DNA of 6,615 bases from a virus (IMGVR_UViG_2713896834_000003:1-6615), one strand, 5' to 3'; counted from the stretch's first letter, positions 110 through 6,615 are shown. Numbers and translations: made by a program. Notes: generated from the letters alone by a model not told the origin.

Positions 110-574
110 GTGGGTAGGATCACTAAAGGTGTGCAGCCGATTACAAATTTTGACGCCAACCGCTACCTCGGAAAATGGTATGAAATAGCTCGCCTCGAGA
201 ACCGGTTCGAACGTGGTCTGGAACAGGTCAGCGCTACTTATGGAAAACGGAACGACGGAGGGATTCGTGTACTTAACCGTGGATACGATCCAACGAAAAA
301 TAAATGGAGCGAGAGCGAAGGTAAAGCATACTTTACTGGAGATACTAAAACTGCAGCATTGAAGGTTTCGTTTTTTGGCCCCTTCTATGGTGGCTATAAT
401 GTAATCAAACTGGATGATGAGTATAAGTATGCTCTTGTCAGTGGTCCGAACAGAGAATACCTATGGATTCTGGCAAGGACCCCAACTATTCCAGATAAAG
501 TAAAAGCAGACTATGTGCGAACCGCTCAAAAGTTGGGATTCAATGTCAATGAATTATTATGGGTTAAACAATAA
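110..574 (+). CDS. blc: Blc-family bacterial lipocalin, apparently 5'-truncated (no signal peptide, no lipobox, no ATG start)
   Basis: The 154-codon frame carries lipocalin motifs as in enterobacterial Blc (NFDANRYLGKWYEIAR, EGKAYFTG, KVSFFGPFYGGYNVI, YLWILARTP). The frame is closed by TGA at 71-73; the first possible start is GTG at 110 with no convincing Shine-Dalgarno, and there is no ATG anywhere in the frame. Stop TAA at 572-574. Confidence 0.55.
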   Translation: MGRITKGVQPITNFDANRYLGKWYEIARLENRFERGLEQVSATYGKRNDGGIRVLNRGYDPTKNKWSESEGKAYFTGDTKTAALKVSFFGPFYGGYNVIKLDDEYKYALVSGPNREYLWILARTPTIPDKVKADYVRTAQKLGFNVNELLWVKQ

Positions 575-1979: not shown

Positions 1980-2142
1980 GATTCCTCCTTGCTGCCAGTC
2001 GCAACCATTTTTTATCAACCAGGCTGGCGGTATATCCGAGCAGTGTTGGTATTTCGGATGGCTTCAGCTCAGGTTTACGCTTACGACGATTTGGTACTCT
2101 GTAGATGTGTCCGTTCATGACACGAATAAGCGGTGTAGCCAT
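1972..2142 (-). CDS. ninE: NinE-family protein (56 aa)
   Basis: Hand translation of the minus strand gives [59 protein letters not shown] at 2142..2140 overlaps the ybcN stop (TAATG). Matches DLP12 NinE in length and position. Not in the ORF track. Confidence 0.7.
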   Translation of the reverse strand: MATPLIRVMNGHIYRVPNRRKRKPELKPSEIPTLLGYTASLVDKKWLRLAARRNHG

Positions 2143-2597
2143 TACGCCTCCTGCTTGTCGCGCAGCAGCTGGAACTCGCAGCTCTGCGGAATAGTCAGGT
2201 GGCAGCCAATATTCATCGCCCAGGCTTCAACCTTACACAGGAAGACATACATCTCTCCGGCATCAAGATCGGAGGTATGGCGTAACGACTGGATAGTGGT
2301 GATTTCACCGGTTACGACATCAACCAGTTCTTTGGTTTCATAACCGAGGTATGTGTGTTTGAGAGCTTCTTTTACCCATGCTGCGGTAGCGAACGATTTC
2401 CCCCTGCTGATAAGGTATTCACTGATTTCGCTGTACCACATGTGGCTGAGTGCATTCTGGGAAAGACTGCGTTTCTCACGCCACGGTTTAAGCACCATGC
2501 GAAAGCATTTTCCGTCCTCCAGATAAGGCTGGATCTGCTGGCCGATAGCGGTGAAGTTGCCGCGATGTAATTTGATGCCATCTTGTGGTAGGTTCAC
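2142..2597 (-). CDS. ybcN: NinB/Orf-family recombination protein (YbcN-like)
   Basis: 151 aa containing the NinB-type RSLSQNA motif at the same relative position as RSLDQN in lambda NinB. GTG start at 2597 with GGAGGTG 3 nt upstream. First gene of the nin-type block. Confidence 0.8.
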
Positions 2598-2787
2598 GCT
2601 TCACCTCCGCAGAGGTCAAACGCAGGATGCAAAAAATCGCAGGTGCATTTCTGCATCTGTGAAGGGAGAAGAGAGTTTGGATTGTATGTGCGCATAAACG
2701 TCCCCGTTTAGCGCAGAAGTCACCGGAGTTGTTCAAGCTCCGATGACTTTATTATTACGAATTGATTTTACAAAATCAAAAGGTATG

Positions 2788-3240
2788 TTAGTGACGCGGG
2801 TCTGTTATTATGCGAGAAGGGTTTCCGTATAAAACAAGGACCTTACTTCCTTGAGTAAATAACGGATCTTTGCCTTGAACAATGGTCATTAAATTCCCAT
2901 TCTCAGTTTCGACAACATATTCCATGCCTGTTTGTTTTGTTGCTGAAGATTCGATTGCTGCCCCGGCAATACCACCAATGACTGCACCACCAACGGCACC
3001 AACGATATTAGAACGAACTCCCCCACCAAGCGCAGAACCAGCGGTTGCCCCCACGGCAGCCCCAGCAGTCCCGCCTAACGCGGAAGTCCCACTGATATCA
3101 ACCCCCCTGGCACTAATAACTGTACCAGCGATAGTTCGATTAACCATGCCCACAGAGCCAACAGAATAACTATTTGGCGATATATTTTGTGCGCATCCAA
3201 CCAACACTAAGAGTGGAGCAATTACGAATAATCGCTTCAT
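2788..3240 (-). CDS. Outer-membrane lipoprotein, SlyB/Pcp-like with glycine-zipper domain
   Basis: Signal peptide plus lipobox (MKRLFVIAPLLVLVG|C, Ala at +2), then a long Gly/Ala zipper (ALGGTAGAAVGATAGSALGGG...VGAVGGAVIGGIAGAAI), then a C-terminal segment (GMEYVVETENGNLMTIVQGKDPLFTQGSKVLVLYGNP) resembling the SlyB C-terminus. Start ATG overlaps the upstream gene's stop (ATGA). Confidence 0.7.
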   Translation of the reverse strand: MKRLFVIAPLLVLVGCAQNISPNSYSVGSVGMVNRTIAGTVISARGVDISGTSALGGTAGAAVGATAGSALGGGVRSNIVGAVGGAVIGGIAGAAIESSATKQTGMEYVVETENGNLMTIVQGKDPLFTQGSKVLVLYGNPSRIITDPRH

Positions 3241-3797
3241 TTAGCTACCCTAACAGGAAACATTGGACGAGAAAGATCAACACTTTCTAATGCTTGCAAG
3301 AACTGCGTTATGTTGTTTTGCACCGCGCGATTAACAGATTCGCGTGCTCGAACAATACCGTAGAATGCGTAACTGGCTGGAACAGTACCGGTAGACTCAA
3401 TATCCTGCGTATATATAATATCACCATTCGCACGGTTGATTATTTCATACCTTGCAATTGCTTTAGTTGTCATTGAAACACCAAAAGCAGGAACGTCAAG
3501 AGCCAACACTTTAACATTTAAGCTAACCGTATTTGGTGAACTATCACGAAAAATAGTCATTCGGTCGAGTGCTTCCTGCAAAGATTCACGCCAAATTGGA
3601 GTTATAGCCTCCATACCAGCAGTGATATCCCCTTTCTGCTCATCTGGACGAGCAAGTGATACCGTTAATGACTTAATTTCAGCATCTATTTTTTTCTGGC
3701 TAACTCCCACGTTAGGTGTTGAAAAATTCAATGGTGGCACACTAGCGCAACCTGTTAAAGAACCAATAATCATGGCTAATAATATTATCTTCTTCAT
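3237..3797 (-). CDS. Lipoprotein of unknown family (186 aa), first gene of the two-gene cargo operon
   Basis: Signal peptide plus canonical lipobox (MKKIILLAMIIGSLTG|C, Ala at +2, so predicted to be sorted to the outer membrane). AAGG-type SD 6 nt upstream of ATG 3797. Translationally coupled to the downstream SlyB-like gene. I do not recognise a family. Confidence 0.7.
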   Translation of the reverse strand: MKKIILLAMIIGSLTGCASVPPLNFSTPNVGVSQKKIDAEIKSLTVSLARPDEQKGDITAGMEAITPIWRESLQEALDRMTIFRDSSPNTVSLNVKVLALDVPAFGVSMTTKAIARYEIINRANGDIIYTQDIESTGTVPASYAFYGIVRARESVNRAVQNNITQFLQALESVDLSRPMFPVRVAK

Positions 3798-3959
3798 AAA
3801 TTTACCTTATTGTTATAACCAAAGGAATTATAAAGTAAAAAAGTTCACTATCACTAGCCATTAACGACATCAATTTCAGAGAAACATGGTACTCATTTCC
3901 ACAAATTTGACACAAGTCATTTTCATCTACATATTCCATCATACTTGATGCATATGTTA

Positions 3960-3988
3960 TTGAAGCCTCTATCCTATCCGTTCATAAT
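3960..3988 (+). promoter_or_regulatory. Candidate sigma70 promoter for the small membrane ORF
   Basis: TTGAAG (3960-3965), 17-nt spacer, CATAAT (3983-3988), in the AT-rich divergent intergenic region, about 65 nt upstream of ATG 4054. Motif match only. Confidence 0.3.
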
Positions 3989-4053
3989 AGCAATAGTTAC
4001 CCGGGTGATAGTACCTCTATGATTACTCGTCTTTCTGATTGATTGGATTAAAT

Positions 4054-4245
4054 ATGCGCGCCAAAATTTATCAACTTTCGTTATGGATATTTATTTCGTT
4101 TCTAGCGATCTATGCCTTTATTATCTATAAAGGTTCTTATATTGGAGTAGCATTGCATCAAATTGCTTGGATCATCATTATTGCCTCTGGCTTGATTGCT
4201 AGGCTAACTAAACCAAAGCAAAAACCAATTTCGTCCAATAATTAG
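4054..4245 (+). CDS. Small hydrophobic protein (63 aa), two predicted transmembrane helices and a basic C-terminal tail; function unknown
   Basis: Translation MRAKIYQLSLWIFISFLAIYAFIIYKGSYIGVALHQIAWIIIIASGLIARLTKPKQKPISSNN. Very AT-rich and divergent from the lipoprotein operon. Weak RBS. The track starts it at an upstream TTG (4039); ATG 4054 is preferred. Confidence 0.4.
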   Translation: MRAKIYQLSLWIFISFLAIYAFIIYKGSYIGVALHQIAWIIIIASGLIARLTKPKQKPISSNN

Positions 4246-4281
4246 ACATGTATTAAAAAATGATATTTTTATGTACATAGT

Positions 4282-4575
4282 CTATTGAAAATTGCCGCGA
4301 TAAAATGCCAACACCCGCTTCATCGCGGCACTCTGGCGACACTCCTTGAAAATCAGATTCGTGCTCACCTTTCCTTCCCGTTCTTCCCTGGTAGCGAACC
4401 GGTAATACACCGTTCGCCAGACCTTACCATCAATAACTAAGATTCCTGTCCGCGCCATTTTAGCCGCAGCCTGGTTTATGCTGGTTACTGTTGCGCCTGT
4501 TACCGCAGCAACGTCCTGCGCACAGAAGCTCTTATGCGTCCCCAGGTAATGAATAATTGCTTCTTTTCCCGTCAT
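4282..4575 (-). CDS. ren: Ren protein (Rex exclusion resistance), lambda-like
   Basis: 97 aa, MTGKEAIIHYLGTHKSFCAQDVAAVTGATVTSINQAAAKMARTG...WRTVYYRFATREEREGK..., matching lambda Ren as I recall it. ATG overlaps the P stop (ATGA). Confidence 0.9.
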   Translation of the reverse strand: MTGKEAIIHYLGTHKSFCAQDVAAVTGATVTSINQAAAKMARTGILVIDGKVWRTVYYRFATREEREGKVSTNLIFKECRQSAAMKRVLAFYRGNFQ

Positions 4576-5273
4576 ACACTGGCTCCTTTCAGTCCGAACT
4601 TAGCTTTGATTTCTGCAATCTTCGCCAGAGCCTGTGCACGATTTAGAGGTCTACCGCCCATGACAGGAAGTTGTTTTACTGGTTCAGGGATCGCCTCACC
4701 ACGGTTAATTCTCGCAGTCATATGGACAAGCTCATCTGCGGCCTTACGGCGTAATTCCGCATCAGTAAGCGCATTGGCCCGCATGTTCTGATACAGGTTG
4801 GTAACCAGCCAGTAGTGCGCGTTTGATTTCCACGGATAAGACTCCGCATCCGGATACAGGCCTCGCTTCCGGCAATACTCGTAAACCATATCAACCAGCT
4901 CGCTGACGTTTGGCAGTCCGGCGATAACGGATGCTTCTTCCCGGCACCATGCAACAAACTGCCCGGGTGATGGCAGGAATGGTCGATTCTGCCGACGGGC
5001 TACGCGCATTCCAGCGTTAACCTGTTCCATTGTGGTGATCCCGTTTTCCCGAAAAGCCAGCACCCACTGGCGGCGGATTTCGTTCAGTTCGTTCTGGTCC
5101 CGGTTAGCCAGGCTCGCTGGGAAAGTTGCCAGTAACTGGCTGAATACACCGTTGATTATCTGCGCTACCTGCTGTACCTGCGGCTTTTCGTCGTACTGTT
5201 CCGGCATGTTATTGGCGATCCGGCACATCTGCTCACGGTCAAAGTTAACCATCTGTGCGGCGATGTTTTTCAT
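4572..5273 (-). CDS. P: Replication protein P (DnaB helicase loader), lambda-type
   Basis: 233 aa, matching my recollection of lambda P along its whole length (MKNIAAQMVNFDREQM...AKFGLKGASV). ATG overlaps the O stop (ATGA). Confidence 0.95.
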   Translation of the reverse strand: MKNIAAQMVNFDREQMCRIANNMPEQYDEKPQVQQVAQIINGVFSQLLATFPASLANRDQNELNEIRRQWVLAFRENGITTMEQVNAGMRVARRQNRPFLPSPGQFVAWCREEASVIAGLPNVSELVDMVYEYCRKRGLYPDAESYPWKSNAHYWLVTNLYQNMRANALTDAELRRKAADELVHMTARINRGEAIPEPVKQLPVMGGRPLNRAQALAKIAEIKAKFGLKGASV

Positions 5274-6199
5274 AAATCCACCCCGTAAATCCAGTCAGTG
5301 TTCGTCAGGTCGAGTTTTGGTTTGCCGGCTGTCACGCCAGCCTGTTGCTTGTTTCGGTTGATTTCGAGCTGGGTCCACTTGTCGCGGAGTTTGGCCGGAC
5401 TCAGCACGTTACCGGACCAGAAGTTGTCCTGGCAGGCCCAGCGGAACAGTACACACATGTCGCGGTGGTTACGTCCATCACGTTCACGCATCAGACGGAT
5501 ATCGTTAGCCCACCCTGCAAAATTCGGTTTTCTGGCTGATGGCGCGATGGTCTTCACCATGTCAAACATCCACTCTGCGGCGGTCAGGTCTTCTGCTGTC
5601 CCCCACTTGCTGCCGTTCTGAATCGCAGCATCCGCTTTCACCACAGGAAGGTCGTTTTCTGGCAGGTCAGAGGATTCGCCAGAATTCTCGGACGAATAAG
5701 GTTTTATATTGTCTTTTGTTAGTTTGTCTTTTGTGTTTACCTGATTCGGGTAAGTGCCTTTACCTGATTTGGGTAAACTTTTCTTACCTGATTCAGGTAA
5801 ATTTACCTCTTTCAGGTAAACTTTATTTTTCTTACCTGATTCGGGTAATGTTGACCATTCACTGACCACATTATTAATGCCTATATTCCGCCCGCTCTGA
5901 ATAAAAATCCCACGCTTTACCAGAACACTTTTTGCAGCAGAACACTTGTGCGGCAATATCCCGGTCAACTCGGAAAGTTGCTCGTTGCTCACCCAATCCA
6001 GTTTTTTATTAAAGCCATATGTTTTGCGCATGACAGCCAGGAAGACCAGAAGCTGGTGCTGTGTTAATCCGGCCAGCATTACAGCTTCCAGCAACTCATT
6101 TGCAATGCGCGTATAACCATCATCGAGATCTGCCACGCGCGGCTCCTTTTGTGCCGCATCCGGCACTGGAAAATTGAATATCTCAGCAGTGTTTGCCAT
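5270..6199 (-). CDS. O: Replication initiator O (origin-binding), lambdoid
   Basis: From ATG 6199 (GGGAGG upstream) the N-terminus MANTAEIFNFP parallels lambda O MTNTAKILNFG. The C-terminal region (WANDIRLMRERDGRNHRDMCVLFRWACQDNFWSGNVLSPAKLRDKWTQLEINRNKQQAGVTAGKPKLDLTNTDWIYGVDL) closely matches my recollection of lambda O. The track's longer ORF begins at an in-frame ATG at 6289 (alternative start). Confidence 0.9.
   Translation of the reverse strand: MANTAEIFNFPVPDAAQKEPRVADLDDGYTRIANELLEAVMLAGLTQHQLLVFLAVMRKTYGFNKKLDWVSNEQLSELTGILPHKCSAAKSVLVKRGIFIQSGRNIGINNVVSEWSTLPESGKKNKVYLKEVNLPESGKKSLPKSGKGTYPNQVNTKDKLTKDNIKPYSSENSGESSDLPENDLPVVKADAAIQNGSKWGTAEDLTAAEWMFDMVKTIAPSARKPNFAGWANDIRLMRERDGRNHRDMCVLFRWACQDNFWSGNVLSPAKLRDKWTQLEINRNKQQAGVTAGKPKLDLTNTDWIYGVDL
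5690..5848 (-). other. Replication origin (ori) embedded in the O gene: iteron array plus adjacent AT-rich region
   Basis: Five iterons at 5737-5848 followed, in the direction of O transcription, by an AT-rich stretch (about 5690-5736). This is the same architecture as lambda ori inside O. Confidence 0.65.
5737..5848. repeat. Five 17-bp palindromic iterons (consensus TTACCTGATTCGGGTAA), putative O-binding sites
   Basis: Direct repeats at 5737-5753 (TTACCTGATTCGGGTAA), 5760-5776 (TTACCTGATTTGGGTAA), 5784-5800 (TTACCTGATTCAGGTAA, a perfect palindrome), 5803-5819 (TTACCTCTTTCAGGTAA) and 5832-5848 (TTACCTGATTCGGGTAA). Confidence 0.8.
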
Positions 6200-6285
6200 A
6201 ATTCCTCCCGCAATGAGTGTGTTACGATTTGCACCTGAAAGTCGGTTCTGTTCCAGCAGACCGGCTTTCGCCATTTCTGAACCTG

Positions 6286-6615
6286 TCATATCGCCCCCAG
6301 CATGGTAGTAACCATCGCCATCAATGGACCAGCCAGATCTGGGTCCACACGAAACATCGACACAATACCTTCACTAATTTCCTTCAGTTTCTGGTGGCGT
6401 GGTGCGTTGAGAATGACAGCCTGTTTTGCCTCACTGAGTTCCTTTTCCATTTCAGCCAACCTAGCCATGAAGCTATCCTGCTCAACCAGGTAACCGCGAT
6501 ATTCCAGCGGTAGTACCGCCAGAATTGCCGGGGTCAGTTCACGCACGTTATTTCGGTATTTTTCAGAATCGAATTTGTTATCGAGGAAGCGGAACAGCTT
6601 CTGGCGTGCACGGCT
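6286..6615 (-). CDS. Hypothetical protein, C-terminal part only (5' end lies beyond the window); occupies the position upstream of O
   Basis: The minus-strand frame is open from the window edge (…SRARQKLFRFLDNKFDSEKYRNNVRELTPAILAVLPLEYRGYLVEQDSFMARLAEMEKELSEAKQ…TMLGAI) to TGA at 6288..6286. It does not resemble lambda cII. Its stop overlaps an ATG in the O frame. Confidence 0.5.
   Translation of the reverse strand, partial: SRARQKLFRFLDNKFDSEKYRNNVRELTPAILAVLPLEYRGYLVEQDSFMARLAEMEKELSEAKQAVILNAPRHQKLKEISEGIVSMFRVDPDLAGPLMAMVTTMLGAI

Follow-up and report, generated by a model that had tools for sequence, protein, structure and literature searches.

The lipoprotein SlyB of E. coli and Salmonella (PhoPQ-regulated; COG3133; PDB 7ojf/7ojg) is the closest known relative of one of the two proteins studied here, and in PDB 7ojf it forms a 13-mer ring around BamA. 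SlyB and its relative YfgH are described as stress-induced outer-membrane stabilisers, thought to form ring, disc or nanodomain oligomers around lipids and outer-membrane proteins (bioRxiv 10.64898/2025.12.22.696046).

A further group of outer-membrane lipoproteins takes part in envelope assemblies and has a common alpha/beta fold: LptE, PqiC (DUF330, ABC_trans_aux), PelC and the N-terminal part of CsgG. TraT, the surface-exclusion and serum-resistance protein of the F plasmid (PDB 9e2v, 9fs5), is a homodecamer that combines an LptE-like core, two transmembrane helices and a beta-hairpin in one chain (PMC12658005). Finally, temperate phages carry envelope morons such as lambda bor and lom, DLP12 ybcL/ybcM, Cor and Llp, which are accessory cargo between conserved phage genes.

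The window (the whole stretch of DNA that was analysed, 6,615 nucleotides) contains a pair of lipoprotein genes, here called LipoA and LipoB, in the following order:

cII-like gene, then O (O at 5270-6289), minus strand: early-right region of a lambdoid prophage
4572-5273, minus strand: P
4282-4575, minus strand: ren
2785-4306: insert relative to other lambdoid phages at the ren/nin junction, bounded by the megablast homology edges
3798-4281: AT-rich spacer between ren and LipoA (484 bp, 31.8% GC)
3827-3854, minus strand: candidate sigma-70 promoter, GTGATA-16-TATAAT (consensus scan, 10 of 12 matches)
3237-3797, minus strand: LipoA, an ORF for a predicted outer-membrane lipoprotein of 186 aa, uncharacterised family PHROG 12521
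3237-3240, minus strand: ATGA stop/start overlap of LipoA and LipoB, read from the sequence as translational coupling
2788-3240, minus strand: LipoB, an ORF for a SlyB-family lipoprotein of 150 aa, PHROG 13877
2142-2597, minus strand: orf33/ybcN (ninB-like)
ninE, ybcO, rusA, ylcG, then Q (Q at 730-1122), minus strand
110-574, plus strand: lipocalin gene, beyond Q

The original prediction placed two ATGA-coupled lipoprotein genes between ren and the nin block; both genes have exactly these coordinates, both lipoboxes are present, and in GCTAAATGAAGCG the TGA stop codon of LipoA overlaps the ATG of LipoB. It had also stated that ren directly precedes ninB in lambda. In a lambda-like phage that lacks the insert, the ren-ninB gap is 73 bp. 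Megablast against phages shows homology to other lambdoids ending at ~2781-2784 and restarting at ~4307, giving an insert of ~1.5 kb that these phages lack.

Related phages hold different cargo at the same place, with ybcK-ybcL-ybcM in the DLP12-type PhiR34_1 and an esterase and a recombinase in phage 4A7, and the ren/nin junction is thus a cargo hotspot. The cassette is present in some phages but absent from close relatives at this position, and it is compositionally distinct, which makes it a moron. It resembles the envelope morons in its composition, its possible own promoter and its ren/nin site, which is that of DLP12 ybcL/ybcM. Unlike them, it is a two-gene unit unrelated to them in sequence and is found mainly on chromosomes outside phages.

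Both genes were expected to be more AT-rich than their neighbours. This is partly true: LipoA has 40.5% GC and the spacer is lower still, but LipoB has 47.5%, against 50-53% in ren, P and ybcN. For the expected dedicated promoter there is a consensus match: the GTGATA-16-TATAAT site, read on the minus strand from 3854 to 3827, lies 30 nt before the LipoA start codon, but the region has no more promoter-like sites (5) than shuffled sequences would give (5.6 expected). A private promoter is plausible from the consensus match. No clear terminator was seen after LipoB, and a PhoP-box scan gave 4 weak matches against 2 expected, which is not significant.

Only the E. coli version of the insert has this spacer, which shows no DNA homology to the regions upstream of the closest non-E. 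coli cassettes. It contains a small ORF (63 or 68 aa, 4039/4054-4245, plus strand) divergent from LipoA and with two hydrophobic helices, predicted to span the membrane twice. Its homologues are near-identical and all from E. coli, it is absent from all non-E. coli cassette versions, and PGAP makes no call for it in strain 042; it may not be a real gene. On the other side, positions 2598-2787, just downstream of LipoB, are ~92% identical to a region of phage 82 (X92588, L120). That region lies upstream of orf33, and its annotations are a putative -35/-10 and a 'possible regulator-binding site'. Given this match, the insert sits directly upstream of a promoter proposed to lie within the nin region.

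Positions 1-121, approximately, belong to the terminal part of an IS3 element (transposase C-terminus ...EQFENKNLA*), which cuts off the 5′ end of the Blc-like lipocalin lipoprotein gene in the cargo position downstream of Q. The lipocalin gene thereby lacks its signal peptide and lipobox here; both are intact in E. coli 042. The O product is 339 aa long in the window and in PhiR30_1, and 309 aa in the prophages of E. coli 042 and WCHEC020031. As O differs in length among carriers of an identical cassette, the cassette sits in mosaic prophage backbones.

LipoB was predicted to have a SlyB-like architecture, and this is now well supported. A profile of the LipoB family (94 members) matches SlyB in PDB 7ojf with E=3.2e-14, aligning positions 2-148 with chain residues 3-153, and BLASTP aligns LipoB with E. 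coli SlyB over the full length (33% identity, E=7e-13). The AlphaFold2 (AF2) model of LipoB (pLDDT 76) contains a strand (residues 36-49), two helices (55-70 and 75-101) and then four strands. In a Foldseek comparison with the PDB, SlyB13-BamA (7ojf) is its only match with E<=0.001 (E=2.3e-8, TM 0.60-0.64). LipoB is thus a true SlyB homologue and a divergent paralogue, of the same length and with the same layout of lipobox, N-terminal strand, glycine-zipper helical hairpin and C-terminal beta domain.

The lipobox of LipoB (LVGC, 3193-3204; Cys16 followed by Ala-Gln) is present in nearly all of the related sequences listed. The glycine-zipper hairpin corresponds to residues ~54-101 (2938-3081), and the subfamily shows almost no variation in the C-terminal beta domain and its tail (EYVVETENGNLMTIVQG...YGxPSRxxxDPR). 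The single LipoB sequence scores below the Pfam cutoffs for the glycine-zipper domains PF05433 (21.1 bits, cutoff 24.2) and PF13488 (16.9 bits, cutoff 25); many of its close relatives have precomputed matches to PF13488 or PF05433.

Other features also set LipoB apart from SlyB. No PhoP-box-like site stands out near it, unlike the PhoPQ-regulated slyB, and it is found on mobile DNA, almost always translationally coupled to an upstream partner gene. Chromosomal slyB is not known to have such a partner gene.

LipoA has a signal peptide (residues 1-16) and a lipobox (LTGC, 3747-3758) in which Cys17 is followed by Ala-Ser. Under the +2 sorting rule, Asp at +2 leads to retention in the inner membrane. 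Neither LipoA nor LipoB has Asp at this position, and both are therefore predicted to be outer-membrane lipoproteins.

No Pfam, NCBIfam or PADLOC family was found for LipoA, and its PHROG family has no assigned function. An exhaustive search with the family profile recovered, at E<=1e-3, 984 cluster representatives. AF2 models LipoA with confidence (pLDDT 88, pTM 0.81), showing a beta-alpha-beta-beta-beta-alpha topology (strand 40-48, helix 62-80, three strands, helix 147-170) preceded by a conserved extended N-terminal segment. On this model, LipoA has the alpha/beta fold of LptE, PqiC and PelC, which is that of lipoproteins in envelope assemblies (LptE, PqiC, PelC, CsgG).

The likeness is confined to the fold. 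Sequence identity to LptE, PqiC, PelC and CsgG-N is 7-15% with no HMM-level relationship, and the LipoA family profile retrieves no LptE, PqiC or PelC chain from the PDB even at E<=10. LipoA has conserved features of its own, namely the N-terminal motif PPLNFSxPNVG and, on the last helix, a polar face, and the partner genes lptD, pqiAB and pel are not conserved in its flanks (91 loci). The BFVD library of viral structures gave no LipoA match with E<=0.001.

Two labels for LipoA are in use. The name 'UDP-N-acetylglucosamine acyltransferase', given in several databases, is without support from HMMs or the predicted fold and looks like a propagated misannotation. Some PGAP annotations call LipoA a 'YajG family lipoprotein', and YajG (192 aa; PF03923, Lipoprotein_16) is indeed of similar length to LipoA. 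Nevertheless, LipoA does not match PF03923 at E<=1, while E. coli YajG itself scores 176.8 bits, and against the NCBIfam YajG model PRK11627 LipoA reaches 11.4 bits (cutoff 242), mainly through the signal peptide (residues 1-62). The HMMs thus do not support the name. By hhalign, the LipoA family and YajG align with a probability of 74% over 120 columns, partly signal peptide, and the two may be remotely related.

SlyB, Blc and YajG have all been reported to co-purify with LptDE (PMC12065857). Each of the three has a relative in this prophage stretch, YajG by annotation; this overlap may be a coincidence.

A faint resemblance of LipoA to TraT had also been proposed. It holds for the fold but finds no echo in sequence: LipoA has no Pfam TraT match, and the profile search of the PDB (E<=10) misses both 9e2v and 9fs5. 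Moreover, the LipoA model contains the core of TraT only, with neither the transmembrane helices nor the beta-hairpin. For a TraT-like assembly the helices would have to come from LipoB, a speculative idea. Taken as a whole, the original interpretation stands in its observation of the cassette and its SlyB call, but not in its TraT hint beyond the fold level.

Next, we considered the pair as a unit. Of 75 species-level genome loci, 69 have a LipoB homologue that follows LipoA within 0.5 kb, as do 13 of 16 non-E. coli viral loci, and all 33 viral contigs found with LipoB also have LipoA. The two genes are therefore paired across genomes. Among the 75 related loci with an assignable LipoB start, stop and start overlap by 4 nt in 52 and by 1 nt in another 11 (63/75 together). 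The identity matrices of the two proteins correlate (r=0.83, Mantel p=0.001).

Both families are well conserved, with mean column identities of 61% for LipoA and 68% for LipoB. Homologues number in the hundreds and share 46-87% protein identity, whereas DNA identity to the closest relatives is only 64-71%. For example, the K. oxytoca cassette is 71% identical in DNA, and its two proteins are 84% and 75% identical. These figures mark both ORFs as real genes. DNA similarity to the nearest relatives runs from the start codon of LipoA to near the stop of LipoB, and the conserved unit thus consists of the two ORFs without regulatory DNA.

In 91 loci, flanks of ~3.5 kb to each side of the pair showed no conserved third gene; only cI-like repressors (18 loci) and a lineage-specific Stenotrophomonas synteny recur. 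A minority of loci have LipoA without LipoB (Photorhabdus L051 and L055; L116-118), suggesting that LipoA can function alone or with other partners. A few longer LipoA relatives were inspected for a LipoA-LipoB fusion (P0247, P0250, P0297, P0322 and P0244); their extensions are unrelated and hold no SlyB-like domain.

Two of these cases deserve a separate description. In L116-L118 (8611-9042), which represent one Xanthomonad-type prophage, LipoA is followed by an unrelated secreted protein of 143 aa that may be an alternative partner. In Photorhabdus caribbeanensis (L051, 9268-10049), a solitary LipoA homologue lies ~0.7 kb from a CRISPR-array-like stretch, whose ORF translations show the regularly repeated peptide FLSCLYGSE.

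The distribution of the pair is broad. Homologues occur in Klebsiella, Serratia, Edaphovirga, Xanthomonas, Stenotrophomonas, Luteimonas, Bordetella, Cupriavidus and Massilia, in many Alphaproteobacteria and in metagenome-assembled genomes labelled Chthoniobacteraceae, Solibacter, Nitrospinales and Desulfobulbaceae, and the pairing spans Pseudomonadota to Verrucomicrobiota. The cassette itself is present in 280 of 5,426 complete E. coli genomes (~5%), with both ORFs intact and at least 99% identity. One of these carriers is the enteroaggregative strain 042, in which the prophage occupies the lambda attachment site next to ybhC. Among 50,697 phage records a single one contains the cassette (PhiR30_1, a complete genome with E. 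coli C given as host). It was not found on plasmids, where the sole match is weak and partial (a Vibrio plasmid).

Several observations point to mobility. GC content of the cassette is more than 3 points below that of the flanks in 46 of 80 loci and above in 2. The five gene-called contexts are variable and include toxin-antitoxin genes, IS elements, umuDC, T6SS effector genes or pgaABCD. In an enterobacterial siphophage (L103-105) the pair lies between the tape-measure gene and a minor tail gene, with a GC3 of 0.32-0.36 compared to 0.55 in the flanks. The pair occupies variable chromosomal regions and different cargo sites in unrelated prophages, and is therefore accessory cargo that is not phage-specific. 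Homology searches could have revealed ordinary core genes of this phage lineage; these placements speak for the opposite.

One prophage position recurs. In at least eight loci from Gamma- and Alphaproteobacteria prophages (L025, L045, L061, L074, L107, L109-111), the pair is directly downstream of and co-oriented with a cI-like repressor gene (HTH and Peptidase_S24). A Pfam scan of six of these repressors found S24 in all six and HTH in four; L110 and L111 were counted because their proteins cluster with the scanned repressors. In the cI-rexAB arrangement of lambda, the position downstream of cI is transcribed in lysogens. Among the genomic contexts, this similar layout gives the clearest hint of a role for the pair in the lysogenic state.

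What might the pair do? A literature search returned no publication, experimental or functional, on LipoA or LipoB. From the comparisons above, the pair probably forms a SlyB-type outer-membrane complex with a dedicated partner. We give about an even chance to the following reading: the cassette is a mobile two-lipoprotein moron that remodels or reinforces the outer membrane of the lysogen, the most likely outcome being envelope-stress tolerance, as with SlyB. LipoB would form SlyB-type rings in the outer membrane, and LipoA, made in fixed proportion to LipoB through translational coupling, would be its dedicated partner on the periplasmic face, possibly as a subunit, cap or cargo of the ring. 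The pair would be expressed in the lysogen, where the LipoA-LipoB complex would act on the outer membrane.

Envelope stabilisation is favoured on two grounds: experiments support no other activity for the homologous family, and the pair is mostly found on chromosomes. Counting against it, the putative promoter is a consensus match and no PhoP-box-like site was apparent near the cassette, some loci have LipoA without LipoB, the LipoB sequence taken alone falls short of the Pfam gathering thresholds for glycine-zipper domains, and E. coli already has a chromosomal slyB.

The pair could instead be an exclusion device, in which a TraT- or SlyB-like ring assembly expressed from the prophage blocks adsorption or DNA ejection of incoming phages, or conjugation, and so shields the lysogen from superinfection. 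We regard this as possible but on balance doubtful. Neither protein is related in sequence to TraT, Cor, Llp or any annotated exclusion family, PADLOC gave no match at E<=1 and the PHROG matches are to families of unknown function only, while the Foldseek matches between LipoB and TraT are not significant (E 0.23-0.49). Most occurrences are chromosomal and outside phages; of ten neighbours compared with PADLOC, one matched (a K. oxytoca AAA ATPase, ~4 kb away), and an association with defence islands was rejected. Proteins so well conserved across phyla are unlikely to be adapted to one particular receptor, which makes receptor masking unlikely, and the soluble domain of SlyB is periplasmic and would not mask surface loops. 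A specific form of the idea, to which we assign a rather low probability, is a 'split TraT' in which a SlyB-type hairpin ring and a cap with the LptE fold make up a two-component ring, anchored in the outer membrane by alpha-helices, that serves as a generic barrier against phage DNA or conjugation.

A role in lipid or LPS handling would draw on the fold of LipoA, which would act as a PqiC- or LptE-like docking or lipid-binding lipoprotein while LipoB organises a membrane patch. The pair would then alter outer-membrane lipid homeostasis and would be no passive stabiliser. However, this fold is common to many functionally unrelated lipoproteins, neither protein belongs to those families at the sequence level, and no pqiAB, mce, lptD or pel genes are conserved beside the pair; we consider the reading improbable. 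More improbable again is an antagonistic function, as an orphan immunity lipoprotein or an entericidin-type toxin/antidote lipoprotein pair spread by mobile elements. Glycine-zipper peptides can form membrane pores, which is compatible with a toxin, as are the patchy and mobile distribution and the nearby toxin-antitoxin genes, IS elements and, once, T6SS effector genes. Nonetheless, the very high conservation across phyla is unlike that of fast-evolving immunity proteins, LipoB aligns with SlyB along its whole length with the beta domain included, no cognate effector is conserved nearby, and the only NCBIfam T6SS match (IglE, E=0.039) covers mainly the signal peptide (residues 3-65). Slightly fainter still is the prospect that the cassette is passenger DNA, inert or decaying, whose genes do nothing jointly in E. 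coli. Some hosts have a defective prophage (in E. coli 042 with truncated tail genes and IS2), the lipocalin gene nearby in the window has been cut short by IS3, and the promoter is a candidate. Yet both ORFs are intact and near-identical in every one of the 280 carrier genomes, the cassette is also present in PhiR30_1, deposited as a complete phage genome, and the K. oxytoca comparison shows clear purifying selection. All three of these readings are less likely than envelope stabilisation. A spanin or lysis role was rejected, the pair being outside the lysis cassette and mostly non-phage.

Neither LipoA nor LipoB departs from known protein architectures, and LipoB taken alone is a new member of the known SlyB family. 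What is new is the locked pairing of a SlyB-type protein with an LptE-fold partner and its spread as a two-gene mobile module. If the less probable split-TraT ring were true, it would account for the repeated placement of the pair beside repressor genes in unrelated temperate phages and would represent a new class of mobile envelope defence with a broad distribution.

It is only recently that SlyB-type glycine-zipper lipoproteins came to be seen as organisers of outer-membrane nanodomains. In the pair described here, nature has locked a SlyB paralogue to a partner of LptE-type fold; the pair is conserved between lineages as distant as E. coli prophages and Verrucomicrobiota, and temperate phages have acquired it repeatedly. 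The module is compact and easy to clone, and it offers a direct route to how such rings are built, what they enclose, and whether prophages use them to harden or close the envelope of their hosts.
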